DNA of 64,000 nt, taken from Candidatus Doudnabacteria bacterium (lineage in GTDB: Bacteria > Patescibacteriota > Doudnabacteria > UBA920 > 2-01-FULL-46-14). Shown piece after piece: positions 4,869 through 46,775 of the stretch. How positions within the stretch are numbered: position 1 is the first letter of the stretch; every line of letters starts with the position of its first letter. The stretch covers positions 213,504 to 277,503 of the forward strand of contig JBGQGB010000001.1 of assembly GCA_041497195.1 (NCBI GenBank), written 5' to 3'. The position numbers and the translations under genes were made by a program. The notes beneath the pieces are model-generated. The model saw only the letters and a program-made list of their open reading frames with translations. It did not search any database and was not told where the DNA came from.

Positions 4869-4916
4869 TTTCTCTTGCTCTAAAAAATGAAAATGTACTG
4901 CAGCGAAAAAACTGAT

Positions 4917-5129: not shown

Positions 5130-5213
5130 AGCTCCTCTATTATACCACTGCTGATTGAAAAAAATAAGCCTGTTCCCTATACTATTTACGCACGGGCTTC
5201 TGCCAATGCCTGT

Positions 5214-5285
5214 GCCCTCGTAGCTCAACGGATAGAGCACTGGTCTTCGGAACCAGTGATGTGGGTTCAATTCCTGCCGAGGGCA
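5214..5285 (+). tRNA. tRNA-Arg (anticodon TCG), CCA not encoded
   Basis: Acceptor stem GCCCTCG/CGAGGGC, D arm GCTC-AACGGATA-GAGC, anticodon stem CTGGT/ACCAG with loop CTTCGGA, and T arm GTGGG-TTCAATT-CCTGC with two G-U pairs. Confidence 0.7.
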
Positions 5286-5322
5286 ATGGCATTGGTGGAA
5301 CATCGATCCTCCAGTTTAGGCG

Positions 5323-5346
5323 GATCAAATCCCTCCGGGCGCACCA
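5323..5346 (+). repeat. tRNA 3'-end-like fragment (GATCAAATCCCTCCGGGCGCACCA) resembling the 3' end of tRNA-Lys at 6227-6302
   Basis: There is a 10/10 match to GGGCGCACCA, and with a 1-nt indel an ATCCCT match as well. It is in direct orientation, about 900 bp upstream of the intact tRNA-Lys. Confidence 0.4.
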
Positions 5347-5350
5347 ATAA

Positions 5351-5382
5351 AAAAACAGCCGATAGGGCTGTTTTTTTTTTTT
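5351..5382 (+). terminator. rho-independent terminator after tRNA-Arg(TCG)
   Basis: Stem AAACAGCC/GGCTGTTT with loop GATAG, followed by a 12-nt T run and preceded by an A run. Confidence 0.7.
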
Positions 5383-5482
5383 GCGTTCCTCAAAGTTGAC
5401 GAAGCTTAGAAAAAGTGTTAGTATCTTTTGTCAAGCTAAAACAACAGGCTTGCAATCCAACTAAAAGAGGAGGAACAAACTC

Positions 5483-6327: not shown

Positions 6328-6981
6328 ATGAATCCAGAAATTGAAACTCGTTTCGAGAATACCCGGAAATCCCAAACTTTTCACAACCTAGTCAGCGCTT
6401 TTGATTTGGACAAAAAAATGGTTTTGGACATCGGTTGCTCCTACGGCGAATTTCTCAACAATTTCGGCAGTGGCAGCGTCGGGATCACGATTGCCAAGGA
6501 AGAAATCGAATACGGCAAACAAAGGGGCCTAGATGTCAGATATGGCAATATTGAATCTGATAATTTTATTTTACAGGAAAAATTTGACGTTATTTTCGCC
6601 AACAATCTATTGGAACATTTATACTCGCCTCATAACTTTCTCTGGAAAATCAAAACATATCTCAAGCCCAACGGCATGCTGATCCTCGGCGTTCCTTGCA
6701 TACCAAAAATTGTTTCGCTGCTGCGTACGAAAAAATTTCAAGGAAGCTTGGCCGGAGCCCATATCAATTTTTTTACTAGGGAGACTCTAGTAAAAACCGT
6801 ACAGAGGGCCGGCTGGAAACCGGCCACAACAAGAGGTTTCCATTTTGCCAGCAAAATATTAGATTGGCTGTTGACCCCCATATATCCTCACTTTTACGTA
6901 GTCGCGACAGTCGAGCAGAATTTTCAATATCCAGAAAAGAGACAGAAAGAACTGGCAGATAGATTAGCACCAACAAGCTAA
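6328..6981 (+). CDS. class I SAM-dependent methyltransferase
   Basis: VLDIGCSYGEF glycine-rich SAM motif, with an acidic residue after the beta-2 strand. Confidence 0.65.
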   Translation: MNPEIETRFENTRKSQTFHNLVSAFDLDKKMVLDIGCSYGEFLNNFGSGSVGITIAKEEIEYGKQRGLDVRYGNIESDNFILQEKFDVIFANNLLEHLYSPHNFLWKIKTYLKPNGMLILGVPCIPKIVSLLRTKKFQGSLAGAHINFFTRETLVKTVQRAGWKPATTRGFHFASKILDWLLTPIYPHFYVVATVEQNFQYPEKRQKELADRLAPTS

Positions 6982-7137
6982 AAACATAGAAAACTTATAG
7001 AGATAGATCGGGAGTAGATTAAGTATTTCTTGTCGCTACAATTTCCGGCCAGCTATTCGCTTCCTCTCCGTCAATAATTCCTAATCCTGCCCATAGGTCT
7101 CTATACTTTGCGAAGTATCTCGATCTACACCCGAACC

Positions 7138-7173
7138 ACAACAAATTCCCGCCTAAAAGCGGGAATTTGTTGT
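7138..7173. terminator. perfect 15-bp inverted repeat (ACAACAAATTCCCGC-CTAAAA-GCGGGAATTTGTTGT) between convergent genes
   Basis: It is a strong hairpin but has no U-tract on either strand, so terminator function is uncertain. Confidence 0.35.
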
Positions 7174-7188
7174 CAGTTCAAAAAAAGT

Positions 7189-7485
7189 TTATTTATACTC
7201 TGCAACTGGATTTTCGCGACCATTGACCCCTTGTTGTAATTTATAAGGCGGCTCCACATAACCCTGTCTTGATTTTAGCCATGTTTGGAACTCTTGATCA
7301 GTTTTCGCATCAATTGTGATAGCCGGCTGGGCAGTTTGCTGCGGGGGTGTCTCGAGCTCCCGGAAGTTAAGATAGAGATATTTATACGTAACTAAAATCT
7401 CAACAAGGATCGTGATGAGAAACAGAACCCACAATATAGTCTGCAAGCTTAAATGGAAGCGAAGATTTTTCGCGGAAATTTTCAT
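7189..7485 (-). CDS. small membrane protein, last gene of the pilMNO operon (98 aa, one TM)
   Basis: Shares an ATGA overlap with pilO and has a hydrophobic segment ILWVLFLITILVEILV. Confidence 0.4.
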   Translation of the reverse strand: MKISAKNLRFHLSLQTILWVLFLITILVEILVTYKYLYLNFRELETPPQQTAQPAITIDAKTDQEFQTWLKSRQGYVEPPYKLQQGVNGRENPVAEYK

Positions 7486-8102
7486 GGCTTTTTAATCAAA
7501 AAAACACCTTCGATGTTACTAGTGACCGTCCCGACATTGCCCAAAAGCTGATTTGGTCCCGCTTGCTCTTTGTCTGCCGTCATACTTAAGGAACTTATCT
7601 CACTCATAAAAGAAAGATTTTCTAAATTGACAAAAAAATCAATCAACTGGCGGTATGTTCCCCCGAGTTTCAAAAAATAATGAACTTCTTCAACATTTTT
7701 GAGACCTGGCACCACTGAAGGAAGCTTCTCTTGACTTGCTTTACTTCCAGGGCCAGCCTCGGCACTATCTACAATTGATAAAACTGCGGTAGGTCCACTT
7801 TTATCAATAGCACTTTCAACTCCTTCTACCAATCCTACGATCTCCTCGCGTTTGGGAAACATTTCGTTTAGACTTTGCTGATCGCTACCCAATTGTTTGA
7901 GCTGAATTGATAAATTTTTCAAACTTTCAATATCTGCCTGGATTTGCTGGAAATCACTCTGATTCTGCTTGATCGCTTCATCCGTGCTTTGAAAATTGCG
8001 CAACATCGGAAGGATGAAAAAAGTTACAACCAAAACCGCCCCAACAATAACCGCGATGACGCTGAGAATAATTTTAGTTTGAGAAGAAAAAGCTCTGAAC
8101 AT
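7482..8102 (-). CDS. pilO: type IV pilus assembly protein PilO-like
   Basis: Single N-terminal TM, coiled-coil region, position after pilM/pilN. The start is moved to the Met at 8100-8102, 1 nt after the pilN stop. Confidence 0.55.
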   Translation of the reverse strand: MFRAFSSQTKIILSVIAVIVGAVLVVTFFILPMLRNFQSTDEAIKQNQSDFQQIQADIESLKNLSIQLKQLGSDQQSLNEMFPKREEIVGLVEGVESAIDKSGPTAVLSIVDSAEAGPGSKASQEKLPSVVPGLKNVEEVHYFLKLGGTYRQLIDFFVNLENLSFMSEISSLSMTADKEQAGPNQLLGNVGTVTSNIEGVFLIKKP

Positions 8103-8103
8103 A

Positions 8104-8658
8104 TTAGTTGAGTATTTCTGGTCGAATATAAAATCGAAACTTCCAAACTGCATCTGTTCGCTTTTCGAGATTCAGCAGAGGAAAATTGACGTTGTTAAAA
8201 TAAGAAGAAGCCAAGAGGTTTTGCCTTAATTGTAAAACGGATTTTCTATCACTGGCACGGCCGCTTGCCTCAACCTTCAGGCTACTTCTACTAATAGTCA
8301 AACTATCGACAGTCAGCCCCGCGGGTAACAATCTGGCAAATTCGATCAAAACTGGAGATAGATTTTGATGTCTGGCGCTAAGGGTCCGAAAATTAGTCAA
8401 ATTTAGATTGAAGTCACCTGCGGCTTTTTGAATTCCCTGCTCTTGAAGCTTGTTAAAAGCAATTTGTTCGGTCTGAACTCGTTGTTGTGAAATCTTTAAT
8501 TCTTCCTGCAAAAAAGTCTGGGCAGCAAAAATCAAAACCGCCAAAATAAGAAAACTTAACCCCAACCAAAATCCAAAACTCCATAACTCTGTATGAATTA
8601 GTTGGAGTTTATACTCCTTTTGCTCGTCAGACGGAAGAAGATTGACAAATTTTTTCAT
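8104..8658 (-). CDS. pilN: type IV pilus assembly protein PilN-like
   Basis: 184 aa with a single TM (FGFWLGLSFLILAVLIFAA) followed by coiled coil. It lies immediately downstream of pilM. Confidence 0.6.
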   Translation of the reverse strand: MKKFVNLLPSDEQKEYKLQLIHTELWSFGFWLGLSFLILAVLIFAAQTFLQEELKISQQRVQTEQIAFNKLQEQGIQKAAGDFNLNLTNFRTLSARHQNLSPVLIEFARLLPAGLTVDSLTISRSSLKVEASGRASDRKSVLQLRQNLLASSYFNNVNFPLLNLEKRTDAVWKFRFYIRPEILN

Positions 8659-8667
8659 AAAATGTCC

Positions 8668-9795
8668 CTAATCAATTTCCCTGAGTCCCAAACCTATTGC
8701 AGTTGCAAAACTCAAAGAATCATCACGTGATAATGGCGGGGTTTGGCCTTTTGCCAAAACATTTGCCCAAGGATTTCCCAATTCGATTTTCAAATCTAGA
8801 AGTGAACGAAGAGGATGAGCATTGTCAGTTTGATGAGAAAGTTTTTGGTGCAAAAAAGACGGCAGATGCTTCAATTTACTTGATCCTCCACAAAGTACCA
8901 AGCGTGAAATTTTGCTGCTCCCGCTGGAGTGTTCTTCAAAAAAACGAATAGTATTTTTTATTTCTTCGATCAAGTTATTTAGCGGCGATCTCAAAGCTTG
9001 CTTCACCGTCCCATGCTCCGCTTCTTCATCAATTCCCACCTCGCGTTTCAGCCGCTCAGCGACTTCTCTATCTATCCCCAAAGATTTGGCAATGGCATCG
9101 GTAAAAACATCTCCGGCGATTGCAAAGGATGACGTAAATTGAAGCGTGCCGTGATCGCTAATGATTAGACTTGTACGGACTGTATCAATATCCACAATCA
9201 AAACTGCCTCTTGCGTTTTGGACATCAGGCTGCGAGCAGTCGCTTGGGATTCCACTTCCAAAGCAACTGGTTGAAGTCCTGCATCTTTCAAAACTTTGAC
9301 CAAACTATCTACATAATCTTTCGGAGCCGCGGTAATGAGTACCGTCATTTTCTTGCCCGAGGTCTGTGCCTCTCCGCCCAAGTCTAAACTAGGTAAAGTG
9401 GGCGAAAGAACGACCCAATCGAGATAAACCTGACTAATAGGAAGGGGTATGTAAGCTTCGGCTTCCCAAGGAACTGCCTCAACGGCCTCTGCCTCGGATA
9501 ATGCAGGCATTTGAATTACCCGGACAAATGATTTTGTCTCCGGTATCGAGGCGACCACTTGTTTTGTAGTCACTTTGCCAAATTTCGGCGATGCGATGGC
9601 TGACCTAATCGTTTTGACCAGAGCATTTGGATCCTGAATTTTGTCGCCCGAAAAAATCGCCTTTGACATTGTGTAATCTGAATAAGCCTGAACGTTCTTT
9701 TTTCCGTCTAGCCGATAAAACTGAATCAACTTTACGGAAATATCACTAATATCAAGCCCCAAAGGTGATTTGTGGTCGCTGAAAATATTAAGCAT
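8668..9795 (-). CDS. pilM: type IV pilus assembly protein PilM (actin-like ATPase fold)
   Basis: N-terminal GLDISDISVKLIQ, LVVDIDTVRTSLII and GGSSKLKHLPSFL motifs are typical of PilM/FtsA-like proteins. Confidence 0.8.
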   Translation of the reverse strand: MLNIFSDHKSPLGLDISDISVKLIQFYRLDGKKNVQAYSDYTMSKAIFSGDKIQDPNALVKTIRSAIASPKFGKVTTKQVVASIPETKSFVRVIQMPALSEAEAVEAVPWEAEAYIPLPISQVYLDWVVLSPTLPSLDLGGEAQTSGKKMTVLITAAPKDYVDSLVKVLKDAGLQPVALEVESQATARSLMSKTQEAVLIVDIDTVRTSLIISDHGTLQFTSSFAIAGDVFTDAIAKSLGIDREVAERLKREVGIDEEAEHGTVKQALRSPLNNLIEEIKNTIRFFEEHSSGSSKISRLVLCGGSSKLKHLPSFLHQKLSHQTDNAHPLRSLLDLKIELGNPWANVLAKGQTPPLSRDDSLSFATAIGLGLREID

Positions 9796-9844
9796 TGGTT
9801 TGTCTAAGACAGAATTTTTGTTTCAATTTGGAGAACTTATTTAT

Positions 9845-9853
9845 ATTATAGCA
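9845..9853 (-). promoter_or_regulatory. extended -10 element (TGCTATAAT on minus strand) upstream of pilM
   Basis: Sits in the 110-nt gap between the 453-aa gene and pilM. The -35 is weak. Confidence 0.3.
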
Positions 9854-9905
9854 CAAATCGAACCAAAAGTAAAACAAAACGCAAAACGATACATCCAAGC
9901 TTTCT

Positions 9906-11267
9906 TCAATTTATTTCTCTCCAAGTACCTCGCTCAATTTTCCACGACCCACCAGGCCCACCAGTAAAATTAACACTAGCCAAACCAGTCTCATAAGTTA
10001 TTATTGAATTGTTTGACAAGGAAATCTGCCAGCCAGTAACTTCCCGAAGTTGGGCATTGTTCGCGACGGCCACGGTTCCGTTTGCCGCGTAAGCGATCAA
10101 AGCATCGGCGTTATTGGCGATTGAAAAAGCACTGCCACTAAATGAGGTCGTCAGCATCATTATATAACTACTCGGGCCGGCTTTTTGAAAAATTGCATCA
10201 TTGGAGACGTCGATTATTCCATCCGCAACGATGACCTCGCTACCGTTTCCATAACTCGGCGACAAAGTGATGATGGCGTTATTGGAAACTGAGATTTTTC
10301 CGTTTACCCAAATGGGGCCGGTCAAGGTCAATTCTGCTCCGTTTGAAAGCGTCAAATTTCCCGTTATTTTTTTTGGTCCGATAGTTGCTTGGGCGAAATT
10401 GCTCAAGGCATAATCTCCAATAATCGTCCCACCGCTTGTCGCCTGATTCTCCCAATCTGTGATTTCCTGATTAGAGATGGGTAAAGGAATGCTTTGTGGG
10501 TTAGGCTCGCCTGGATATGGAGTATTTTGCGATCCGCTGATTGTACAAGAAGTTTTTGTCGTATAAGAAGCGTTACCGCCGACCGTACAGTTACTAACTG
10601 AGTACATAAAAGCGCTTGCACCAACCGTGACATTGTCCATGGCGTAGCCATAGGCGTTGGCCCCGACAGCGACGTTAGTATCGATTTGATTGGCATGAGC
10701 GTTACCATCAATCTGCACACGATCAAAAATCCTACCGGTCGCACCGCTCGAATAAGCATCGCCGGTAATGTGGGCTCCGGCTGCACCATCAATGGTTCCA
10801 TCACTGTAAACACTGCCATTGATTAGAGAATTATTACTCATCACGAGTCCCCCCTGGCCAACTTGCACCCCATAATTAAAACTCACGTTCGTGGTGTCAA
10901 TACTCACCCGCACTTTTATCTGTTTCGTTACTTGCGGAGCGGCTTTGTTTGGAATATAACCTGTTGCAGTAATTTCTCGTAGACTTGAAGAAAGGTTGCT
11001 GATACTAGTATCAAAGACCCCGGCCCCTAGAATGGTTCCGGTTTCACCAGTATAACCACCTGCTGTTTGGTTCAGTTGCCAAACGGCTTTGTCGATAGCT
11101 GCTTCTGCCAATTGCAACGCTTGCTCTTTGGCCACCGCAATTCTTGTCGCGCGGACATTTAGAAAAACGTACGAAAGCAGAGCGGAAACCAAAGTCATAA
11201 CCACTACCAAAAAAATAATCGAAAGGATCATGATTTGACCAGACGAATATGATTTATTCATAGGCAT
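9906..11267 (-). CDS. pilus-associated secreted repeat protein (453 aa) with an N-terminal TM/pilin-like anchor and Gly/Asn/Ser/Thr-rich, beta-helix-like repeats
   Basis: Its start overlaps the stop of the pseudopilin gene by 1 nt. It has a hydrophobic N-terminus without the GFxxxE motif, and repeated (N/S)xxVGxN / GxAxxxG segments. Confidence 0.45.
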   Translation of the reverse strand: MPMNKSYSSGQIMILSIIFLVVVMTLVSALLSYVFLNVRATRIAVAKEQALQLAEAAIDKAVWQLNQTAGGYTGETGTILGAGVFDTSISNLSSSLREITATGYIPNKAAPQVTKQIKVRVSIDTTNVSFNYGVQVGQGGLVMSNNSLINGSVYSDGTIDGAAGAHITGDAYSSGATGRIFDRVQIDGNAHANQIDTNVAVGANAYGYAMDNVTVGASAFMYSVSNCTVGGNASYTTKTSCTISGSQNTPYPGEPNPQSIPLPISNQEITDWENQATSGGTIIGDYALSNFAQATIGPKKITGNLTLSNGAELTLTGPIWVNGKISVSNNAIITLSPSYGNGSEVIVADGIIDVSNDAIFQKAGPSSYIMMLTTSFSGSAFSIANNADALIAYAANGTVAVANNAQLREVTGWQISLSNNSIITYETGLASVNFTGGPGGSWKIERGTWREIN

Positions 11268-11860
11268 TATTTATTTCGTAAAGTCACGGAACCGCTTATT
11301 TGTTCTGAGGCAGGAAAACGACCGGAGTCAGCAAGGCTAAATTGATAATCGACAGCATGGGCCAAATTAAAATCAGAATTGTCATAGCTCAAATTGATAC
11401 TGTTCAATTTATTAGAAAGTTCAAGAAAACGACCGTGACGATTGCTAGCCGGGTCTGGCGCGACCGTCAGAATTAAACGAGCAGAATTGTTCGGGTCTTG
11501 ACCGATGATCGCGTAATCGTAAGTATTTGGAATTATTTGATTAGAGCTATCAAGTGACGGCAATTGCAAAACAATAAGGTTCGCCCCGGTCGTGTACGTT
11601 ACCGAATTGTAAACATGCGAAGGAACAAAAGCGATAGCGGTACGAACGTAAAGTACTAACTGATCTGCCGCTTCTCGAGCTTCATTGTTAAACCTAACCC
11701 CCCCGGATTGCGTCTGATAAAATTGATTGCTGGAAAGAAAAATACCTACCCCCAAAACTACCAAAATTGCCATCAAAGCAGTCACTACAAGAATTTCTGA
11801 CAAAGTAAAGCCAGAAAAAAACGATTCAAGAGTGAAGGTGCGGTTTTTATGGTTTGCCAA
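11267..11860 (-). CDS. pseudopilin/minor pilin with prepilin-type N-terminal cleavage/methylation domain
   Basis: SGFTLSEILVVTALMAILVV matches the class III signal (G-F-T-L-x-E). Confidence 0.7.
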   Translation of the reverse strand: MANHKNRTFTLESFFSGFTLSEILVVTALMAILVVLGVGIFLSSNQFYQTQSGGVRFNNEAREAADQLVLYVRTAIAFVPSHVYNSVTYTTGANLIVLQLPSLDSSNQIIPNTYDYAIIGQDPNNSARLILTVAPDPASNRHGRFLELSNKLNSINLSYDNSDFNLAHAVDYQFSLADSGRFPASEQISGSVTLRNK

Positions 11861-12224
11861 GTCCGATGCTGCCTATTAAAGTTTCTAAACTCACACTGTG
11901 CGAGCCGCTAGCGTCAGACCAAGAAATTGTCACGACCGCGTCCTTGATTTTAGCGCTACTCTGATAGCTAGCCACTGTCAAGTTTGCACTGCCGGAGGGC
12001 AATTCGGCCAGAGCCGCGTCATTGTAAGAACCACTGGCGGGCAGAGACGCATATGACGTATTTCGAAGTTCCTCAATTTTCTTCGCCGCCAGATGATACG
12101 CAAGGTTTTGATTCCGCGCCGTTTTTATCAGAGGAAGAGACGATATCACCAAACCGAAAATAGTCATGGTAACCAAAAGGAACGCCAGGGCAATAATTAC
12201 CTCCACAAGGGTAAAACCTTTCAT
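11847..12224 (-). CDS. type IV pilin (prepilin N-terminal methylation domain), Ser-rich C-terminal half
   Basis: MKGFTLVEVIIALAFLLV, 125 aa, with an ATGA overlap with pilC. Confidence 0.75.
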   Translation of the reverse strand: MKGFTLVEVIIALAFLLVTMTIFGLVISSLPLIKTARNQNLAYHLAAKKIEELRNTSYASLPASGSYNDAALAELPSGSANLTVASYQSSAKIKDAVVTISWSDASGSHSVSLETLIGSIGLGKP

Positions 12225-13438
12225 ATATTTTGACCAATATTGTAAATCGGCAAAATCAAACCCACGGCTAACACGCCGACAATCGCGCCAATCACAATCA
12301 CCAAGATAGGTTCGATGATTGATGAGAGATTTTTCATGGTATCGTCAACCTCCGTTTCGTAGAAATTGGCGACTTGGGCCAAAACTTTCTCCATGGTTCC
12401 TGATTCCTCGCCGACCTGAATCATTTGGGTGACCATTGACGTAAAAAGCTTGGGATATTTTTCCAGTGCGACCACGAGATCCACCCCAATTTTAACTTTG
12501 TCGGCAGCGTCGGCGAGAGCTTTCTGATAATAAATATTGGTCATCGTATCGCTTGTAATTTTCAAAGCTTGAACAATAGGCATCCCCGAACGCAACAAAC
12601 CGCTGAAAATAATGGTAAAGCGGGCCAGGTTGAGTTTTTTCACAATTTTGCCGATAATGGGCAGGGTGATATAAATTTTATGCATGACAGCGCGTCCTCC
12701 CTTGGTCTTTTGCCAAAACCAAAACGACGCAAATAGTGCGATAAAAACCAAAAGCACGAGAAATGAATATTTAGACATAATGTCAACGACTCTGATAATC
12801 ACGACGGTTAAGAGGGGTAACTGAGTATTAAACTCTTTGAAACTGGCAGTCAATTTCGGCAGGACGAATGCGAACATAAGATAGCCAATGATTACCAGGG
12901 CCACCAAAACCACTGCAGGATACATCAAAGCACCACGGGTCCTGCGCAACAAATTGTAGTCCCGGTCAATTTGCACTCCCAAATATTCTAAAGTCTCGTC
13001 CAGATTTCCGGTCTCCTCCCCGACTTTCACCATATTCGTGAGCATGGGCGAAAATACTTTCGGGAAGGCCTCCATACTTTCGGACAAAGTCTTACCCGTC
13101 TCCACATCATGGGCAATAGTCGCCACAACGCTTTGAAAATAGGGGTTTGGCATTTGTTTAGACAGGACGTGAATAGCCTTGGCAACTGGCAAACCGGCCT
13201 TGATAGTGACCGATAAATTGTTTATAAAGGTCAATTTTTCTAAAAGCGAAACATGGGAAAAAATTTTCCTAAAAAGATCGTTGAAATTCAGCGACCCTGA
13301 TCGTTTTTCCACGATTGCAGTCGGGAGAAGTCCTTGACTGCGCAGCATTTGTCCGACCGCTTCTCGCGACGGTGCATCAAGCACGTCGGTAATAGTTCTA
13401 CCTTCCCGATTACGGGCGGTATAAGCAAATGATGGCAT
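12221..13438 (-). CDS. pilC: type IV pilus platform protein PilC (GspF family)
   Basis: 405 aa, three TM segments and a duplicated GspF domain (..GETGNLDE.. and ..GEESGTMEK..). Confidence 0.85.
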   Translation of the reverse strand: MPSFAYTARNREGRTITDVLDAPSREAVGQMLRSQGLLPTAIVEKRSGSLNFNDLFRKIFSHVSLLEKLTFINNLSVTIKAGLPVAKAIHVLSKQMPNPYFQSVVATIAHDVETGKTLSESMEAFPKVFSPMLTNMVKVGEETGNLDETLEYLGVQIDRDYNLLRRTRGALMYPAVVLVALVIIGYLMFAFVLPKLTASFKEFNTQLPLLTVVIIRVVDIMSKYSFLVLLVFIALFASFWFWQKTKGGRAVMHKIYITLPIIGKIVKKLNLARFTIIFSGLLRSGMPIVQALKITSDTMTNIYYQKALADAADKVKIGVDLVVALEKYPKLFTSMVTQMIQVGEESGTMEKVLAQVANFYETEVDDTMKNLSSIIEPILVIVIGAIVGVLAVGLILPIYNIGQNI

Positions 13439-13441
13439 ATT

Positions 13442-15196
13442 TTATTCCTTACTTACTCTCAAAACCTCGGCAATTGTCGTCAAACCTAGATGAGCTTTGA
13501 TGAAACCATCTTGCCACATCAAGACCATCCCATCCTGAACAGCTTGCTCCTGGATTTGGTTGGTAGTCGAGCGAGCTAGAATCAATTTGGCGACGCTTTC
13601 CGTGATATCCAAAACTTCATAAATGCCCATGCGACTCTTATAACCAGAGTGTCCGCATTTATCACACCCGCGTCCTTCGTAAAATTCCGCGTCTTGGATG
13701 TGTTTTATCTTTTTGTCCAAAACCTGTTCCCGTTTCATAACCTCCAGCAAATGGTCAAGATTAAAATCCAGCGACAAACTCTGAACCATCTTCTCGTCCA
13801 ATTTTACCTGGGCTTTACAATCGGGACAAATTTTTCGAACCAAACGTTGACCAATGATAGTGTTGAGAGTTGAAGCGATGAGATAAGGCTCGACGCCAAT
13901 ATCCAACAACCGTGGAATCGCGCCGGCCGCATTATTGGTGTGTAGTGTCGACAAGACGATATGGCCGGTCATGGCCGCATGGACGGCTTCTTCCGAAGTC
14001 TCCAAATCACGAATTTCTCCGATCATAATGATATTGGGGTCTTGCCGCAACAGCGCCCGCAACCCAATCGCAAAAGTCAGTCCGATCTTCGGATTGACTT
14101 GCATTTGATTTACTCCAGGCATCCGGTATTCAATCGGGTCTTCGATGGTGCTGATGTTAATGCCTTTAACATTCAGTTTGGTCAAAAAGGTATACAAAGT
14201 GGTGGATTTGCCTGAACCGGTCGGGCCAGTGATGAGCGTCATTCCATGCGGCCTTGTTAAATTACGCTTGATGACCTCAAGCGACGTCCGCGCAAATCCG
14301 AGCTCTTCAAAAGTCAAGGCTTTGGCCCCTTCATCCAACAGACGCAAGACGACTTTTTCTCCGTCAAACACCGGAATAGTCGAGACTCGGAAAGAAATAT
14401 TATACTCGTCGGTTTGAAGCTTGAAACGCCCGTCTTGCGGCAACCGGTGTTCGTCTATTTTCAGATTGGACAGGACTTTCAGGCGGGCAACCAAGGCTGG
14501 TTGAATAATTTTTGGCAGAGTCATCACGTCATGAAGAATCCCGTCAATTCGATAGCGGACAATGACTTCCTTTTCTTGCGGTTCAATGTGGATGTCCGAA
14601 GCCCCTTCAAAAATTGCGTATTCGAGAAGGGTGTCGACTACGCGCACTACCGGAATTTCTTCGGCCATTTTCTTGAGGGACTGGTCTCCCTCACTTTCCA
14701 CACTTTCTGTCGCCGGAGCCCCTTGTTTTTTGGTAGTGAGGATTTTTTCAAACTCAGCCTTTAGGCTGCTATGGTACTGGGCGAGAGCGAATTCCATCCC
14801 GGTCTTTGTAGCGAGATGCGGCTTGATGACGAATCCGGTTTTCTTTTTGACAAATTCCCTGGTCTGCAGGTCCTCGGGGTCGGTCATGGCCAAATCCAAC
14901 TCCTCGCCGCGTTTTTTGAAAGCCACGACCTGGTGCCGATGCGCAATCGGCTCGGGGATAATCTTCAAAACTTCCTCGGGAATCTTAATCTGCGTCAAAT
15001 CCACGAGCGGAATTTTGAGAAAATCACTAACTAATTTGGCAAGCCGCTCCTCGGGAATAATTTTCCGGACAACTAAATAATTCACCAGGGGCTGCTTTTT
15101 GTCCTGGGCTTCTTTTTCCAATTCTGCAAAATCAACATCTTTGATTATCTGTTGATCCACAAGAATTCGCTTGAGGTCAGTTGAGGCCAGAGCCAT
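13442..15196 (-). CDS. pilB: type IV pilus assembly ATPase PilB (GspE family)
   Basis: N-terminal T2SSE_N domain, Walker A GPTGSGKST, Asp and His boxes, and a tetracysteine motif CPDC...CDKCGHSGY. Confidence 0.9.
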   Translation of the reverse strand: MALASTDLKRILVDQQIIKDVDFAELEKEAQDKKQPLVNYLVVRKIIPEERLAKLVSDFLKIPLVDLTQIKIPEEVLKIIPEPIAHRHQVVAFKKRGEELDLAMTDPEDLQTREFVKKKTGFVIKPHLATKTGMEFALAQYHSSLKAEFEKILTTKKQGAPATESVESEGDQSLKKMAEEIPVVRVVDTLLEYAIFEGASDIHIEPQEKEVIVRYRIDGILHDVMTLPKIIQPALVARLKVLSNLKIDEHRLPQDGRFKLQTDEYNISFRVSTIPVFDGEKVVLRLLDEGAKALTFEELGFARTSLEVIKRNLTRPHGMTLITGPTGSGKSTTLYTFLTKLNVKGINISTIEDPIEYRMPGVNQMQVNPKIGLTFAIGLRALLRQDPNIIMIGEIRDLETSEEAVHAAMTGHIVLSTLHTNNAAGAIPRLLDIGVEPYLIASTLNTIIGQRLVRKICPDCKAQVKLDEKMVQSLSLDFNLDHLLEVMKREQVLDKKIKHIQDAEFYEGRGCDKCGHSGYKSRMGIYEVLDITESVAKLILARSTTNQIQEQAVQDGMVLMWQDGFIKAHLGLTTIAEVLRVSKE

Positions 15197-15291
15197 ATTG
15201 GTTTTGATTTCAGGTGAAGCAGAAACAGCAAATACAAATATCAGATCAGAGTTCCCGACATCTGTATTGTTCTACGATGTAGAGTTATTTA

Positions 15292-15300
15292 ATTATATCA
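15292..15300 (-). promoter_or_regulatory. extended -10 element (TGATATAAT on minus strand) upstream of pilB
   Basis: About 95 nt upstream of the pilB ATG. It overlaps the last codons of the Wzy_C gene. Confidence 0.35.
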
Positions 15301-17748
15301 TTTTTTGCAGGTTGTTTCCAGTTCGTGCAAAAATTGCTGGCCCTGAACAGCGTAAGCATTGTCGATCTGGACTGCCGCCTGAACTTGCTCTCGCGCATTC
15401 ACCAAATCACACATTTGTCCGTATATCGAGGCCAACTGGGCATGCAGAACAGGACTACCCTGATTCATGACCAACGCTGCTTTGTAATTTTCGATGGCTT
15501 TAGAATTGTTGCCGGCTTGCAGATATGCTTGGGCCATGCTTTCGTATTCCTGTTCAGTAAAATGGATATTCAAAATATCAAGGATATATTTCGTCTCAGA
15601 GGCAACGAGACCCTCGCGTCCAGAAATGATTGCAGCCAACAAATAATTAAACCGTGTTTCTTTGGTGGTGGGGTTTAACTCCACTGCTTTTTGAAACTGG
15701 TACAGACCTGTCGGGTAATCTTTTTTGGAAAAATATGCCTGACCTAATTCAACATAAATCTGGGAACGAGTCGGGGAGAGACTCAAGGCCTTTTGCCCTA
15801 ATGTGACGACTTCGCTTAGGGCATTTTGATCGCTGGAATAACGATTTAAAAGACTCATCTCATACAAATAACTTTTCACATCTTGCGGGGCTTCCTTGAT
15901 GCTTTTCTGTATCTCGCTAGTCGCGTATTGATAAAACTCGGCCTTTTCCTGAGGAGACAGGTCCGGGCTGCCTTGCGCGGCGTTGACGTAATCAACCATC
16001 CGTTCCCTGATTTCTTGGTCCATATAAGTTCCGTACGATAGGGCGTGTTTGAAAGCCGGCTCCACCGCTCGATAATTTTGTAGAGCTCCCATTTTTATTC
16101 CCTGGGTCGCATAATAATTGGCAAAGGCTGGCTTGAAATTGACAAAAAGCGCGACAGTAAAAACAATCACTCCCAGAATTATCGGGAAAACTAATCCGGG
16201 ATTGTAGCTGGTTCCTGCCCCCGGCATTTGATCCTCGCTGTCAGAAAAGTTTTTGAGAAAGGCAATGAAACCCAAAAACGTAAAAAACATCAAATAGGTA
16301 GCCTGCGTATCGAAGACAAACATATTCTGGATGAAATAAGCCAAAAGCGTAACCGTCAAAATCAGCGGAAACTGCCAGGGCAAATCCGCAGCATTCTTTC
16401 TGAAAAGTTTCCACAATGTGCCAAAAGCGGCCCCAAAAATTCCCAAATATGCAATCAACCCGACTAAGCCAGAGGTGACGCCGACATCGAAAAATATATT
16501 GTGGGCTCGGTCAAACCAAATTTGACTGCCTTGTTTTTTGAAAATCCTGGCTGGGAAATATTTATTGAAAGCGACATTGTAATTTTCATAGCCGTAACCG
16601 AGAAAAAAACGATCCTTCCAACCCTTCCAAGAGGCTTGCCAGGTATCCAGACGAGACTGTGTCGTAGTATCGTTCACGGAAATGGTCGTCATTCTGAAAA
16701 GGGTACGATTTTGCTTGACCCAATTAGCGTTGCGACTAGCATAAATCAGCGCCGCGGAGAGAATGAGAAAAAAAAGCAGGCCTGATGACACTAATTTGAC
16801 AGATTTGCTAGAAGATTTAAAAATATAAAACAAAAAGTATACAAGCAGAGCAACGAACATGGCGACAAGCGCCCCGCGAGTTTGGGTTTGAAATAAAATC
16901 AACAACTGAAAGAAAAAGGCGGCAGCCAAAAACGGCTTGGTAAATTTTCCTGCCGCAAAAACCACGGCAGCAGCCACAACCAAGTAGACGACAAAATATG
17001 GAAAATAAATCAGCTGGCCGAAACTATCAAACGAGTGAGCTTCGTTGAGTTGAAACAGCAAAGCCAGAACGACTGCAAAAAGAGCCATCAGCCAAAGGGG
17101 TAAAGTAATCGGTTCGTCTTTTTTGATGGAAAAAAACAAATACAGGCTAAGAAATGCCCCGAAGATCAGGAAAGCAGCATAAAACGCGGCATTACCGATC
17201 GTCGCGGAGATCCGATCCCCCCCTGTCGGCAATAGCCTGGCGCAGAAAGCATTCTGGTCAGGTGAAATCTGGGCATTACAATTCAATTGGGCAAAACCAT
17301 ATAGAGCGGTACAGGTGATTATAATGATGGCAATTAGAAAAAAACGCGACCATTCCTTTTTCGATCGCAGGGTGCTGGCTAAAATCGTAAAATAAGCGGC
17401 GAAATGAAGAATCGTGACGATCCCTTCACCTCTCTCCACTGTGCCAAAGAAGCTGCGATGAAAATTCACGCCAAAAAGACTTGCAATCAAAATCACAGCG
17501 ACGTAAATCCACACCGCGCGCATTAGCCAGTTCCATCGCGGACGAACTTCTGGATACCGAAGCGCCAAAATCAAATAAATACAAAGAGCGATTTCGACCA
17601 ACAACCGGAAAAACAAAATTTTGGTAGTGATGAAGGGAAACAAAAACATGCTCCAGACCCACACAGGTGTGAGCAAAAGAGCATATAAAATAACCTTTAA
17701 AAATTTGTAAAGGCGGCTATCATCTAAGGCCGCGACTGGATTAGCCAT
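15298..17748 (-). CDS. Wzy_C (O-antigen ligase/PglL/PilO-like) polytopic membrane protein with C-terminal TPR repeats (816 aa)
   Basis: At least 10 TM helices, a periplasmic loop with R...H and the GYGYENYNVAF motif typical of Wzy_C, and a C-terminal roughly 300-aa TPR region. Confidence 0.6.
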   Translation of the reverse strand: MANPVAALDDSRLYKFLKVILYALLLTPVWVWSMFLFPFITTKILFFRLLVEIALCIYLILALRYPEVRPRWNWLMRAVWIYVAVILIASLFGVNFHRSFFGTVERGEGIVTILHFAAYFTILASTLRSKKEWSRFFLIAIIIITCTALYGFAQLNCNAQISPDQNAFCARLLPTGGDRISATIGNAAFYAAFLIFGAFLSLYLFFSIKKDEPITLPLWLMALFAVVLALLFQLNEAHSFDSFGQLIYFPYFVVYLVVAAAVVFAAGKFTKPFLAAAFFFQLLILFQTQTRGALVAMFVALLVYFLFYIFKSSSKSVKLVSSGLLFFLILSAALIYASRNANWVKQNRTLFRMTTISVNDTTTQSRLDTWQASWKGWKDRFFLGYGYENYNVAFNKYFPARIFKKQGSQIWFDRAHNIFFDVGVTSGLVGLIAYLGIFGAAFGTLWKLFRKNAADLPWQFPLILTVTLLAYFIQNMFVFDTQATYLMFFTFLGFIAFLKNFSDSEDQMPGAGTSYNPGLVFPIILGVIVFTVALFVNFKPAFANYYATQGIKMGALQNYRAVEPAFKHALSYGTYMDQEIRERMVDYVNAAQGSPDLSPQEKAEFYQYATSEIQKSIKEAPQDVKSYLYEMSLLNRYSSDQNALSEVVTLGQKALSLSPTRSQIYVELGQAYFSKKDYPTGLYQFQKAVELNPTTKETRFNYLLAAIISGREGLVASETKYILDILNIHFTEQEYESMAQAYLQAGNNSKAIENYKAALVMNQGSPVLHAQLASIYGQMCDLVNAREQVQAAVQIDNAYAVQGQQFLHELETTCKK

Positions 17749-17813
17749 GGACTCAGTTTAACGAATCCGGAATGACTGGTCAAATCTCGAAATTTTGCTA
17801 TAATTAGAAGGAA

Positions 17814-19193
17814 ATGTTGTTAAATCGCTTCAAAAAAATTTTCCTCTTCGTCGGAGATTTGGCAGTTTTGTACTCATCTTTGTATCTCACCCTGCTGATC
17901 CGTTTCCGTGCATTCCCGACCCTCCAGACCTGGAACGTCCACTTCAGGCCTTTCACCATCTTGTTTGTGGTGTGGGTTCTGGTTTTCTACATCGACGGAC
18001 TTTACGAAATCGCGACGAGTAAAAACGACGTCGAATTTTATAATAAAATCCTGCGAAATCTTCTGATAAACTATGGGCTGGCGGCCGCATATTTTTATCT
18101 CTTGACTAATAAGCTCTTTTCCATTAAGCCACAAACCGTATTTTTTATATTCATGGGCGTAGTGGCCGTATTATTTTTCCTGTGGCGATATTGGTATAAC
18201 GAACTGGTCCAAAGTCCTACCTTGTCACGCAACGTGCTCGTCATCGGGATGAAAGACGAGGCACGCGAGCTGATCGAGGAAATTATCAAAAAACCACAAC
18301 TTGGTTACCGTATTAGCGCTATCATTCACGATGGCTATCGAAAGGATTACGATTTTCCGAACGTGAAAATTTTTGGCAGTTCAGTGAGCCTAAAAAAATT
18401 GCTTCGAGAAGAAAAAATCAGCACTGTGGTGACTGCATTTGATCCCCACGCCAATCAGGCTCTCGTGCAGAATCTCTTTGAGAGTTTAGCCCTCAAACTT
18501 CAATTTTCTGATTTACCAACCTTTTACGAAAAGCTTACTGGCAAAATACCTGTCACCACGATTGGACATATCTGGTTTTTGGAAAATCTGGCGGAGAGCG
18601 AAAAAGATGTATATGATTCGATCAAGCGAGGATTAGATATTATCTTCGCCGTACTCGGCTTGATTATTTCCGTCCCTCTGATTCCGTTCATCAGCTTGGC
18701 AATCAAACTAAACGGCCATGGCACTTTACTGTTCAGACAAACTCGCGTCGGTCTTTTAGGCAAACATTTCGTGGCCACAAAATTTCGGAGCATGATTGTC
18801 GGTGCGGAAAAAGAGGGCGAACCGCAGTGGGCAAAAAAAAATGACCCGCGGGTGACAAATGTCGGCAAATTTCTCAGGAAAACCCGCATGGATGAAATTC
18901 CACAACTTTTCAACGTGTTGCGCGGAGAGATGTCTTTCATCGGACCACGACCGGAGCGCCCCGAGTTCGTGAAAAATTTACAAAGCATGATTCCTTTCTA
19001 TAACGAACGCCACTTGGTAAAACCCGGGCTGACGGGTTGGGCACAAATCAACTTCCAGTATGGCGCTTCAACCGGGGACGCTTTGAAAAAACTCCAATAT
19101 GATCTCTTTTACATCAAAAACCGATCCCTTGCTCTGGATGTCGGCGTGATGTTGAAAACGATCAATATCATTCTGACTGGGCGCGGACAATAA
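17814..19193 (+). CDS. polyprenyl-phosphate sugar-1-phosphate transferase (WbaP/bacterial sugar transferase family), the initiating enzyme
   Basis: C-terminal signature FRQTRVG..FVATKFRSM..DPRVTNVGKFLRKTRMDEIPQLFNVLRGEMSFIGPRPERPEF, with 4-5 N-terminal TM helices. Confidence 0.85.
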   Translation: MLLNRFKKIFLFVGDLAVLYSSLYLTLLIRFRAFPTLQTWNVHFRPFTILFVVWVLVFYIDGLYEIATSKNDVEFYNKILRNLLINYGLAAAYFYLLTNKLFSIKPQTVFFIFMGVVAVLFFLWRYWYNELVQSPTLSRNVLVIGMKDEARELIEEIIKKPQLGYRISAIIHDGYRKDYDFPNVKIFGSSVSLKKLLREEKISTVVTAFDPHANQALVQNLFESLALKLQFSDLPTFYEKLTGKIPVTTIGHIWFLENLAESEKDVYDSIKRGLDIIFAVLGLIISVPLIPFISLAIKLNGHGTLLFRQTRVGLLGKHFVATKFRSMIVGAEKEGEPQWAKKNDPRVTNVGKFLRKTRMDEIPQLFNVLRGEMSFIGPRPERPEFVKNLQSMIPFYNERHLVKPGLTGWAQINFQYGASTGDALKKLQYDLFYIKNRSLALDVGVMLKTINIILTGRGQ

Positions 19194-19199
19194 TAGAAT

Positions 19200-19562
19200 T
19201 TAGCGGGCGATGAGCACTAAACCGAAAATGACCAAAACGACGCCGGCGAATTGCATCAGACTGATTGTCTCGCGCAAAAACAACCAAGAAAAAAATAGCA
19301 CCAAAATGTAGTTCAAACTGGTAAAAGGTATCGCGACACTTAATTTCAGCTTGGACAGAACCAAGAGCCAGAACATAAAACCAAAACCGAGGCTCACCAA
19401 CCCCAGAAATAAATAGAGATTTGTGAAAACTTTCGGAATGAGGTCCAAAAAATTCCGCAGGGAAAACTCCACTACCCCAATTTTGGTCATGCCCAATTTG
19501 ATGAGCACTTGGGCCGCAACTGTCAGAATAATGCTGACGAACAACAATACGTAAGTTATCAT
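19200..19562 (-). CDS. small 4-TM membrane protein (SMR/EamA-like; ArnE/ArnF-type flippase candidate)
   Basis: 120 aa with four hydrophobic helices, sited in the glycan cluster. Confidence 0.4.
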   Translation of the reverse strand: MITYVLLFVSIILTVAAQVLIKLGMTKIGVVEFSLRNFLDLIPKVFTNLYLFLGLVSLGFGFMFWLLVLSKLKLSVAIPFTSLNYILVLFFSWLFLRETISLMQFAGVVLVIFGLVLIAR

Positions 19563-21589
19563 AATTGGTTTATTTGATTTAAAACGTAAATATCTACGGT
19601 TTGAAGCGAGCGTTGCAAATGATAAGAACTCTGAATGCCCCGGAGAAAATATTCGACCTGGTCATTGCGGTAAGCATCGCGGCCAACTAGCACTACAGGC
19701 AATCGGTTTTGCCGAACCTGACGAATGTATTTATCCATTTCGGACTGGAAATATATCGTGAAGGTATAATAAAAATCAAAATAATTCGCTTTGTCTGCAT
19801 ATATTAGAAATTTCGTGTCGTTCTTGGACATGATCGGGATGCGCTCGGTAGCGAAATTTTGGGAGACAAATTTGGCATCCTGATAAGTGCTCTGATCCTC
19901 CGGCCGCACTCCCAACAAATTCTGTCGCATTGTCGCATATTGTCTGACGGAGAATTCTACTGGCAGTTTAAAACAAAATAGCAATAAAGCATACACCAGT
20001 AATCCGAAAAACGCCCCGCTAATCAGCTTGCCGGAATCGCTCGGCCCCTCCCGGTCCTGAACATATTTAAAAGCGTAAAACACAATCAGGATGAACGGCA
20101 CCGTTACGACATAGAGTAGCTGCCACGTGGACTCTCCAACATAATAAATCAGCGAAGTCGCGCCAAAAGCTCCCAAAAAGAACAAGGGCATGTCAATCAT
20201 TGGTTCTTTTTTCCAGAGGCGGTAAACCGCGACTAGCAAAACAACTAGGTAAGAAAAATAAAAAAGCTCGTACAAACCAATAGGCGGCAATGGATACATT
20301 CCCGCGCCCTGAGTAAAGTACTTCGTTTCTTTGAGAAAAAGGTGCCAGTCTGGCCACCCGCCATAAATGCCATGATTAATGAGATTGATTGCGGCAAACA
20401 GACCCACCGCGTAAAGTCCGTAGAACAGGATGATTTTCAATACTCTCTTGAGATCCCAATTATGTGCCAACTCGCGATAGATGAGGGTCGCCACAGTCGC
20501 CACAGTCAGATATAATCCAGAATCAAAATTCCAAAATATGGCGACAGCAGATAGCGCCAAAGCCACGTGCATAAATTTTGGCTTTAGCGTTTTGGAATAT
20601 TGATAAATTGCCAATAAAGTCGGCAAATAGAGCCCCCACCGAAACGGGCTCATCCCGGGAAAAAACAAGACCGATCTTGAAAAACTGTTTTGAAAAAAAT
20701 AAAGGATAGAAACAATCGTCGCAGTCGCCAAGCTAGCGAGAGTGTAGGATTTTAGCCAAAGCCGGGCAAACAAAAAAATTCCGATAAAAAGCAAAAAATA
20801 ACACACAGTAATTATGAGGGCCAGCATCGGGTAAGTCATGGGAATAAGCTTAAACACCCCGGCCAGCAAGTATACGTCGAGCAATCCATATAGATGCGAA
20901 GACTCATATAACATGGCCTTACCGTGGTAGACGTCGTTCACTGCTCCAAGGTAATAATTGAAATGGTGGGTATCAAGCGGAAAACTTGGGTTAAAAATCA
21001 AGATTCCGAGGATAATAACCAAAACTGGCCAAAATCTTCGAAAAAATTTCTCCGTACGCTCGTGCGAATAAAATTTAGTATTGTATTTGCCCAGAAAATA
21101 AAAACCAGCCACAAACAAACCGCTCAAAAGCAAAACTGCGTGGGCGACTAGAATCCGCTTTGTCGTAAGCAACCACAAAATATGCCAGATCCCTTTTTTT
21201 TCCACAAGACTCAACAAAGCCCCCAGCTTAATGAGGCTCGAAAGTTTCTTTAGAACAACTGCTCCAGCGCCAAGCAAGGCAATCAAGGATAAACCGATTA
21301 GATGTTTTTTTCTGATTCGCGAAACGAGCGGCACCAATACTAAAGCTAAAGTTGGAACCACCAAATAACTCAGGACATAGAGCGGGGCCTCAAACGGCTC
21401 AGCTTGCATAAATGTCGGGCCAAAGCTGAGGAAAAGACCGACCGGCCTTCCATCAATGCCCATGTAATGATAAAGCCAATTCTGGAAATACCGGGCTGAC
21501 AAAAAATAAATGATTGTGCCGGTTCCGAGGGCCAGGAAATACTGTTTCTTGTTGCTCAGCACTGAATCCAAGCTCATTTCAATTCGCAA
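19559..21589 (-). CDS. large polytopic membrane protein (676 aa), GT-C-like candidate; paralog of 34681-36711
   Basis: At least 12 TM helices. Shares blocks with the second copy (PFExPLYxLSY, LYE..YG.L..YL.A, FWN.D.G.Y, YYVG.S.W). Confidence 0.45.
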   Translation of the reverse strand: MRIEMSLDSVLSNKKQYFLALGTGTIIYFLSARYFQNWLYHYMGIDGRPVGLFLSFGPTFMQAEPFEAPLYVLSYLVVPTLALVLVPLVSRIRKKHLIGLSLIALLGAGAVVLKKLSSLIKLGALLSLVEKKGIWHILWLLTTKRILVAHAVLLLSGLFVAGFYFLGKYNTKFYSHERTEKFFRRFWPVLVIILGILIFNPSFPLDTHHFNYYLGAVNDVYHGKAMLYESSHLYGLLDVYLLAGVFKLIPMTYPMLALIITVCYFLLFIGIFLFARLWLKSYTLASLATATIVSILYFFQNSFSRSVLFFPGMSPFRWGLYLPTLLAIYQYSKTLKPKFMHVALALSAVAIFWNFDSGLYLTVATVATLIYRELAHNWDLKRVLKIILFYGLYAVGLFAAINLINHGIYGGWPDWHLFLKETKYFTQGAGMYPLPPIGLYELFYFSYLVVLLVAVYRLWKKEPMIDMPLFFLGAFGATSLIYYVGESTWQLLYVVTVPFILIVFYAFKYVQDREGPSDSGKLISGAFFGLLVYALLLFCFKLPVEFSVRQYATMRQNLLGVRPEDQSTYQDAKFVSQNFATERIPIMSKNDTKFLIYADKANYFDFYYTFTIYFQSEMDKYIRQVRQNRLPVVLVGRDAYRNDQVEYFLRGIQSSYHLQRSLQTVDIYVLNQINQL

Positions 21590-41278: not shown

Positions 41279-41282
41279 AAAA

Positions 41283-46146: not shown

Positions 46147-46154
46147 CTCTTTGC

Positions 46155-46772: not shown

Positions 46773-46775
46773 TAT

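Follow-up and report, generated by a model that had tools for sequence, protein, structure and literature searches.

Genes at the locus

The window analyzed here is a 64,000-nt stretch of DNA from a Candidatus Doudnabacteria bacterium, and its subject is a gene encoding an 816-residue membrane protein in which a Wzy_C domain is joined to a C-terminal tetratricopeptide repeat (TPR) domain (the Wzy_C-TPR protein). The gene stands between a type IV pilus operon and a divergently transcribed gene for an initiating phosphoglycosyltransferase (PGT), and its product is a reasonable candidate for an enzyme that glycosylates surface proteins, with pilin as no more than a possible client. Family scans covered about 60 open reading frames (ORFs), which are nearly all of the window ORFs that reach 110 aa, and gave the following layout (window coordinates).

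17814-19193, plus strand: PGT, a WbaP/WcaJ-like initiating polyprenyl-phosphate hexose-1-phosphate transferase, 459 aa (PF02397 Bac_transf, E = 1.5e-63)
17749-17813: divergent intergenic region, 65 bp, with promoter-like sites on both strands (consensus scan)
15298-17748, minus strand: Wzy_C-TPR protein, 816 aa, a polytopic membrane domain of predicted WaaL fold followed by the C-terminal TPR domain
15197-15297: gap between the Wzy_C-TPR gene and pilB, 101 bp, with a weak hairpin after a promoter-like TGaTATAAT
13442-15196, minus strand: pilB, type IV pilus assembly ATPase, 584 aa (TIGR02538, 582 bits; T2SSE, E = 1e-126; MshEN)
12221-13438, minus strand: pilC, platform protein, 405 aa (T2SSF, E = 3.7e-63)
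11847-12224, minus strand: prepilin-type protein, 125 aa, N terminus MKG|FTLVE (N_methyl; weak ComGF, PilV, and GspI matches)
11267-11860, minus strand: prepilin-type protein, 197 aa, minor-pilin-like (N_methyl and TIGR02532 matches)
9906-11267, minus strand: Ser/Thr/Asn-rich protein, 453 aa, with a hydrophobic N terminus that lacks Glu5, in a PilX/GspK-like position
8668-9795, minus strand: pilM (PilM_2, E = 7.8e-43; TIGR01175, 190 bits)
7189-8658, minus strand: pilN, pilO, and a 98-aa membrane ORF, the end of the operon (PilN, E = 7e-07; PilO, E = 5e-06)
24196-25539, minus strand: Wzx-type flippase, 447 aa (Polysacc_synt, E = 2.9e-23)

This layout agrees with a preliminary description of the DNA on three points. 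The pilus operon said to lie beside the Wzy_C-TPR gene is real and reads pilB-pilC-three pilin-like genes-pilMNO, with 101 bp between the Wzy_C-TPR stop codon and pilB; the divergent WbaP-type transferase is found 65 bp away on the other side; and the Wzx flippase is accompanied, as described, by glycan genes over the rest of the window, where nearly all ORFs between 19.2 and 64 kb (about 45 kb) are sugar-nucleotide, glycosyltransferase, or methyltransferase genes. The PGT scores 394 bits against TIGR03025 (EPS_sugtrans; cutoff, 295). The promoter-like sequences of the divergent region, TGGTCA-16-TATAAT on the plus strand (17777-17804) and TTGACC-17-TAAACT on the minus strand (17783-17755), are consensus matches only. 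An extended -10-like element, TGaTATAAT, overlaps the Wzy_C-TPR stop codon (15292-15320, minus strand), which suggests that pilB may own a separate promoter at this position; among relatives, the space ahead of pilB narrows to as little as 4 to 23 nt.

By family scans, the operon holds a type IVa-like pilus set (PilB, PilC, PilMNO, and prepilin-type subunits), and no PilQ, PilT, or PilD was found in the 64-kb window. The absence of a secretin gene from the operon fits a monoderm envelope. The 453-aa protein returned zero family matches in the same scans, and its homologs occupy the same operon position in relatives. The 98-aa membrane ORF is kept in three related loci (L002, L008, and L091).

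Family, fold, and catalytic residues of the Wzy_C-TPR protein

The 816-aa protein matches Wzy_C (PF04932) at 80.6 bits over residues 276 to 435 (gathering cutoff, 31.7), and TPR models are matched at approximately residues 600 to 800. An AlphaFold2 model computed from 25 family members, which has a predicted local distance difference test (pLDDT) score of 88 and a predicted template modeling score of 0.86, gives the membrane domain a WaaL-like polytopic fold. Searched against PDB sequences with phmmer, the full-length protein yields TPR matches only, and a profile of the membrane domain alone picks up WaaL (7TPG) by sequence with an E value of 1.6e-11. Aligned to WaaL, the family shows the motifs TRGA, RLKxW (RLKIW in WaaL), and AHN.

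16480-16737, minus strand: large extracytoplasmic catalytic loop of the Wzy_C-TPR protein, residues 338-423

No substitution occurs at R291, R366, D413, R414, H416, G427, G430, or D480 in any of the 115 full-length relatives. R366, D413, R414, and H416 lie within the catalytic loop, and G427 and G430 lie just beyond its end, where they close the H-N-X9-G-X2-G motif that H416 opens. This motif fits the form H[NSQ]X9GXX[GTY] that Schild et al. reportedly described for WaaL in 2005. The spacing of R291, R366, and H416 (75 and 50 residues) is that of R215, R288, and H338 in WaaL and of R224, R298, and H349 in PglL. These positions are functionally important in Escherichia coli WaaL and are conserved in PglL of Neisseria meningitidis (PMC3643930), and the equivalent histidine is essential in Wzy_C O-oligosaccharyltransferases (O-OTases) (PMC9829042). 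Since the two arginines and the histidine are invariant and spaced as in WaaL and PglL, the catalytic apparatus of a ligase or an oligosaccharyltransferase is intact.

An O-OTase, a Wzy polymerase, and other ligases are not told apart by sequence or fold, and the Wzy_C domain is common to polymerases and ligases (PMC3643930). The protein might then be a Wzy-type polymerase, or a ligase to a nonprotein acceptor such as a glycolipid or a wall polymer, that builds surface polysaccharide; the TPR domain would scaffold envelope machinery, and the adjacency to the pilus genes would reflect coordinated surface biogenesis or descent. We consider this explanation, the main rival to the one favored below, possible but somewhat unlikely. 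The invariant histidine sits in a motif that is a signature of WaaL and of O-OTases, and Pfam scans of nearly all window ORFs of at least 110 aa found neither a Wzz-type chain-length regulator (polysaccharide copolymerase family, PCP) nor an LCP ligase domain. Three uncharacterized polytopic proteins of the window, two of 676 aa and one of 794 aa, could fill the role of a polymerase. Furthermore, no characterized Wzy polymerase is known to have a large outward TPR domain, which we count against a polymerase.

The window protein also contains an insertion of about 57 residues (approximately residues 214 to 268; window 16945-17109, minus strand) that adds two transmembrane helices and keeps the topology. 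It is found in few relatives (e.g., P0014), and pLDDT is low at residues 239 to 246.

Placement of the TPR domain

15301-16083, minus strand: TPR domain of the Wzy_C-TPR protein, residues 556-816, about seven helical-hairpin repeats, predicted to be extramembrane (AlphaFold2 helix map and hydropathy)

According to the model and to hydropathy, four transmembrane helices follow the catalytic loop (approximately residues 424 to 442, 460 to 478, 483 to 501, and 518 to 536) and lead into the TPR domain. A positive-inside analysis places short Lys/Arg-rich loops on the face opposite the catalytic loop. The approximately seven TPR repeats are thus predicted to lie on the outer, active-site side of the membrane. 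The cysteines occur in pairs among the 115 relatives: of Cys780 and Cys814, which belong to the last repeats, 54 relatives have both, 61 have neither, and none has only one, and Cys157 and Cys169, in an outer loop, are both present in 19 and both missing in 95, with a single cysteine in 1. Disulfides of an extracytoplasmic domain would be expected to give such a distribution, which independently supports the outer placement and implies a probable Cys780-Cys814 disulfide.

Because the TPR domain is predicted on the active-site side, presentation of an acceptor by the repeats is geometrically reasonable. The earlier proposal that the domain is a substrate-recognition module is consistent with this placement, in that the repeats and the active-site loop would share the outer side of the membrane; the acceptor itself we infer. 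The same TPR domain occurs in clades that are not linked to pili.

PilF and PilW pilot the PilQ secretin of diderms, and the JGI name of the protein, "O-antigen ligase/Tfp pilus assembly protein PilF," together with a weak match to TIGR02521, would make the TPR domain a pilus assembly factor of this type, so that the main role of the protein would be pilus biogenesis and not glycan transfer. We regard this as very improbable given that the pilus operon contains no secretin gene, that the domain extends to clades without a pilus link, and that the catalytic residues are invariant. The PilF/PilW assignment of the repeats was rejected on the TIGR02521 score, 30 bits against a cutoff of 154.

Family distribution and gene neighborhood

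With the membrane domain as the query, a library clustered at 50% identity yields at least 1,794 representatives of the family (E ≤ 1e-30), most of them 700 to 850 aa in length. Every relative with a taxon name belongs to the candidate phyla radiation (CPR; Patescibacteria), and the best homologs come from metagenome-assembled genomes of Doudnabacteria and Parcubacteria. Literature searches yielded nothing relevant on an O-antigen ligase or oligosaccharyltransferase of CPR bacteria. Gene neighborhoods were compared across 86 related loci, 6 from genome contigs (single-sequence query) and 80 from metagenomes (alignment query), with 6 more obtained by homolog look-up. Loci with less than 42% identity to the query were treated as the distant set; in 60 of these, the downstream flank spans 2 kb or more.

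None of these 60 distant loci has pilB, pilC, or pilM within 10 kb. Of 55 distant loci, 19 have a PGT gene upstream of and divergent from the Wzy_C-TPR gene, within 500 nt in 17 of them, and most of the pilus-linked clade described below has one as well. The conserved partner across the family is the PGT and not the pilus. Directly downstream, usually within 60 nt, 17 of the 60 distant loci have a gene for a signal-peptide protein of about 740 aa with Peptidase_S8 (mycosin-like) and FG-GAP domains (locus coordinates).

L004, 12524-14776: S8/FG-GAP gene
L017, 12260-14476: S8/FG-GAP gene
L043, 12196-14400: S8/FG-GAP gene

About 16 further loci carry the gene as well. In L004, a scanned locus, this gene is followed by genes for GtrA, an epimerase, a GT2 glycosyltransferase, a DUF2304 protein, and a second GT2 glycosyltransferase. 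The S8/FG-GAP protein may be a glycoprotein client or a partner in surface-protein maturation; no homolog of it was found in the window.

The order Wzy_C-TPR, pilB, pilC on one strand is found in eleven related loci: P0035 (Doudnabacteria), P0015, P0010, P0039, P0042, and P0051, which have 37 to 50% identity to the query, and L001, L002, L007, L008, and L009. The gap between the Wzy_C-TPR gene and pilB is 4 to 133 nt among relatives. A neighbor-joining tree of 91 family proteins places the 11 loci and the window in one clade (82 of 100 bootstraps) with internal identity down to 36%, nested among S8-linked clades that have the divergent PGT. A single monophyletic clade indicates that the adjacency arose once and was kept. 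Confinement of the pilus linkage to relatives of at least 42% identity was rejected, as P0042 (41%) and P0051 (37%) have the pilus operon. Within the clade the pilus link has proved no less stable than the link to the PGT, which is lost or moved in L093, L008, and L001.

In this clade, the kept adjacency gives moderate support to a functional connection with the pilus; it gives none to pilus specificity throughout the family. The pilus link as first described holds clade-wide, with the gene immediately preceding pilB and read in the same direction; it does not hold for the wider family, whose partner is the PGT and whose sister clades carry S8/FG-GAP genes at that position. Both conserved downstream neighbors concern exported proteins, the pilus machine in 11 loci and the signal-peptide S8/FG-GAP protein in 17 of 60. 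The presence of exported-protein genes downstream in both sister clades argues against a polymerase. Several features of the neighborhood nevertheless favor a polymerase or a nonprotein ligase: the most widely kept partner is the PGT, the PGT itself scores best against an exopolysaccharide model (TIGR03025), and the gene lies at the edge of the 45-kb glycan locus.

In L006, L026, L031, L040/L054/L057, L041, and L063, the Wzy_C-TPR gene has paralogs in tandem or nearly so, which suggests diversified donor or acceptor specificity. An asparagine-synthase homolog adjoins the PGT of the Wzy_C-TPR module in L004 (6398-8266). L005 has an ORF of similar size (614 aa; 6630-8474) at the matching position.

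Pilin-like proteins of the operon

The pilin-like genes are located two genes downstream of the Wzy_C-TPR gene, past pilB and pilC. The C-terminal half of the 125-aa protein is Ser/Thr rich, as had been noted: residues 55 to 125 are 28% Ser plus Thr, compared with 10 to 13% in pilB, pilC, and the PGT. Its designation as the major pilin (11847-12224) is unsupported. The weak family matches are confined to the N terminus and are all to minor pilins (ComGF, PilV, GspI, and ComGE), the JGI annotation is PilV, and the trio of 125-, 197-, and 453-aa proteins, the last without Glu5, resembles a GspI/J/K or PilV/W/X set. An AlphaFold2 model of the 125-aa protein (pLDDT, 91) consists of one long helix and a three-stranded sheet; against the PDB, Foldseek gave no match below an E value of 0.1 and phmmer gave none. 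The protein is more likely a PilV/GspI-like minor pilin than a major pilin, judging from these matches. Just past its N-terminal helix is a conserved Ala/Ser/Pro-rich loop, SLPASGSF, roughly where the glycosylated Ser63 of Neisseria pilin lies, which we treat as a lead only.

The window yielded no further pilin gene, and neither did the 10-kb flanks of other clade members, with the exception of L008, where a pilin-like ORF of 198 aa is read in the opposite direction. In L008 and L091 the order Wzy_C-TPR-pilB-pilC-pilMNO is kept in an operon free of pilin genes, and no ORF of L092 has a prepilin motif. No major pilin gene adjoins the Wzy_C-TPR gene, whose neighbor is pilB, and none was identified in the rest of the 64-kb window or in the clade members' 10-kb flanks. 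Saccharibacteria are documented to encode the major pilin apart from the operon for the pilus machinery (PMC12206443).

These observations bear on whether the protein is a dedicated pilin O-OTase like TfpO, PglS, and TfpM, with a TPR domain that recognizes the 125-aa protein as major pilin and a Ser/Thr-rich half that is glycosylated. The gene is on the same strand as pilB and adjacent to it throughout the monophyletic clade (11 loci and the window), with gaps down to 4 and 19 nt, and the link to the PGT is no more stable than this one; the pilin-like proteins are Ser/Thr rich, and the SLPASGSF loop is conserved. However, pilus genes are found within 10 kb in 0 of 60 loci of sister-clade orthologs, which share the divergent PGT, the operons of L008 and L091 are free of pilin genes, and the 125-aa protein has the look of a minor pilin. 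The adjoining gene encodes an ATPase, unlike the situation of pglL, which is beside the pilin gene in 21 of 31 cases, and of pilO, which is next to its pilin gene (PMC3643930), and the separation of Patescibacteria major pilins from the machinery operon is documented (PMC12206443). Overall, a dedicated pilin enzyme is improbable. Of the dedicated pilin O-glycosylation system first envisaged, the Wzy_C fold, the PGT, the Wzx flippase, and the clade-kept adjacency stand; the ATPase gene as nearest neighbor and the pilin-free operons of L008 and L091 speak against the dedication.

Proposed function of the Wzy_C-TPR protein

We favor, with a rough probability of 0.45, a role for the 816-aa protein as a terminal transferase of undecaprenyl-diphosphate (Und-PP)-linked glycans, most likely a surface-protein O-OTase resembling WsfB and PglL with pilins as possible clients. 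This reading is built on the fold, the catalytic residues, the topology, the gene linkage, and the phylogenetic pattern; the donor, the acceptor, and any link to pilin would be as follows. The divergent PGT would prime the lipid carrier at the cytoplasmic face, glycosyltransferases of the adjoining locus would extend the glycan, and Wzx would flip it to the outer face. There, the WaaL-fold domain (R291, R366, and H416 in the outer loop) would transfer the glycan en bloc, off its lipid carrier and onto an acceptor held by the disulfide-stabilized TPR domain over the outer face. The acceptor would most likely be a protein, with the enzyme acting as a monoderm-type O-OTase, as proposed for WsfB and PglL, that serves surface proteins generally. 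In the pilus-linked clade, pilins are plausible clients.

Several points weigh against this assignment. The protein could be a polymerase, as Wzy polymerases have the Wzy_C domain and this class of fold as well, and a Wzx flippase is present 5 kb away with no other recognizable Wzy in the window. The PglL_A (PF15864) model returned zero matches at E ≤ 10 with the membrane domains of the window protein and two relatives, and Wzy_C_2 gave the window protein no match at this threshold either. The adjacency to the pilus operon stems from a single ancestral event, and the likeness to WsfB is one of architecture by description only.

A broader version of the surface-protein O-OTase would have the Wzy_C-TPR protein and its PGT form a general protein O-glycosylation pair of the Patescibacteria that was recruited, in the Doudnabacteria-like clade, to the head of the pilus operon and that glycosylates the subunits during assembly. 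We consider this version doubtful. These pili are the organelles with which such episymbionts locate their hosts and stay attached to them.

Nearly all Patescibacteria have type IV pili, and the few members that have been cultivated depend on them for host attachment and motility (PMC12206443). Glycosylation of their pilins has so far been guessed at only by a sequence predictor, with no enzyme proposed. The present analysis offers a concrete candidate enzyme family with H416 as the catalytic residue to mutate and a predicted extracellular TPR domain, and its two natural gene contexts, pilus and subtilase, suggest candidate substrates. If the protein is a protein O-OTase, Wzy_C-type protein glycosylation would be extended to a very large uncultivated radiation, and new enzymes might be added to glycoengineering. 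As a polymerase or a ligase, it would be an ordinary part of a surface-polysaccharide locus.

Other genes of the glycan locus

The two 676-aa polytopic proteins mentioned above are paralogs with 28% identity, encoded on the minus strand at 19559-21589 and 34681-36711. Each has about 9 to 10 transmembrane helices and a C-terminal soluble part, and neither has a Pfam or NCBIfam match. The first gene directly follows a gene for a 120-aa EamA-like protein (19200-19562), a pairing reminiscent of ArnE/F and ArnT. These proteins are candidates for novel GT-C-like transferases or polymerases. The 794-aa membrane protein is YfhO-like (25536-27920, minus strand) and, with a GtrA and GT2 pair (39946-41311, minus strand), makes up the parts of a three-component undecaprenyl-phosphate-sugar glycosylation route that is separate from the Und-PP pathway.

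A cassette for nonulosonic acid of the pseudaminic or legionaminic type (44042-48516, plus strand) contains genes for a PseB-like dehydratase, a PseC-like aminotransferase, a DUF218 protein, NeuB, and a formyltransferase-like protein. Between 53954 and 58264 (minus strand) are a GT9 "heptosyltransferase" gene and split or fused heptose-nucleotide genes, in which a PfkB kinase is combined with a cupin and a cytidylyltransferase-like domain with a HAD phosphatase. The lineage that carries these GT9 and heptose genes is not expected to make lipopolysaccharide (LPS), and no Lpx or Kdo families were found among the roughly 60 scanned ORFs of the 64-kb window.

The first 6.3 kb of the window hold three tRNA genes (Arg-TCT, Arg-TCG, and Lys-CTT). 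A 170-aa ORF without a family match (4887-5399, plus strand) overlaps a tRNA-Arg gene (5213-5286) and is therefore probably not a real gene.

Comparison with known systems

The WaaL of Cupriavidus metallidurans (PDB 7TPG and 7TPJ) has 16% identity to the window protein and lacks a TPR domain. Its acceptor is lipid A-core, and no lipid A or Kdo gene was found among the scanned window ORFs. CPR bacteria are not known to make LPS, and it is this alone that speaks against the function of WaaL; the missing secretin gene of the pilus operon agrees with it.

The enzymes TfpO (PilO), TfpM, and PglS are smaller than the window protein and are not known to have a TPR domain. They resemble it in having a Wzy_C domain with an essential histidine (PMC9829042) and a genetic link to type IV pilus genes. 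They differ in that the PilO gene is next to its pilin gene (PMC3643930), whereas the window gene has no identified cognate major pilin. All described bacterial O-OTase families (PglL, PglS, TfpO, and TfpM) carry Wzy_C (PMC9829042).

PglL of Neisseria, Acinetobacter, Burkholderia, and Vibrio shares with the window protein the Wzy_C domain, the spacing of the Arg/Arg/His residues, and the use of an Und-PP-glycan that is started by a PGT and flipped outward, and its gene is often near type IV pilin genes (PMC3643930). The window protein, however, matches neither PglL_A nor Wzy_C_2, is about 200 residues longer, and is predicted to have about seven full TPR repeats; its gene is upstream of pilB and not by a pilin gene, and its host is a monoderm CPR bacterium. 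Given the missing PglL_A and Wzy_C_2 matches and the adjacency to pilB, the protein is not to be filed as PglL or TfpO.

The eukaryotic O-GlcNAc transferase (OGT), SPINDLY (SPY), and the TMTC O-mannosyltransferases offer a functional analogy, in which a TPR superhelix fused to a glycosyltransferase selects protein substrates. The TPR domains of OGT and SPY are among the top Foldseek matches. Their catalytic folds and donors are unrelated, and the catalytic domain has no homology to that of the window protein.

The strongest parallel is with the S-layer glycosylation (slg) loci of monoderm Firmicutes. WsfB of Paenibacillus alvei is a predicted S-layer O-OTase with Wzy_C and a C-terminal TPR region, encoded in a locus with the WbaP-like WsfP and the asparagine-synthase homolog wsfA (PMC2943079). 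The window protein likewise combines Wzy_C with a C-terminal TPR domain and has a WbaP-like PGT in its locus; the host is again a monoderm that is not known to make LPS, and an asparagine-synthase homolog is present in the locus of the relative L004. In Geobacillus stearothermophilus, which has WsaB and WsaA with the PGT WsaP, the TPR region is on a separate protein. The slg loci use an ABC transporter, whereas the window locus has Wzx, and WsfB and WsaB target an S-layer protein at Tyr, Ser, or Thr, whereas the window gene neighbors a pilus operon and the window has no identified S-layer gene. Overall, by analogy of architecture, WsfB appears to be the closest described counterpart of the Wzy_C-TPR protein, which is a new member of the Wzy_C enzyme kind and not a new kind of system.

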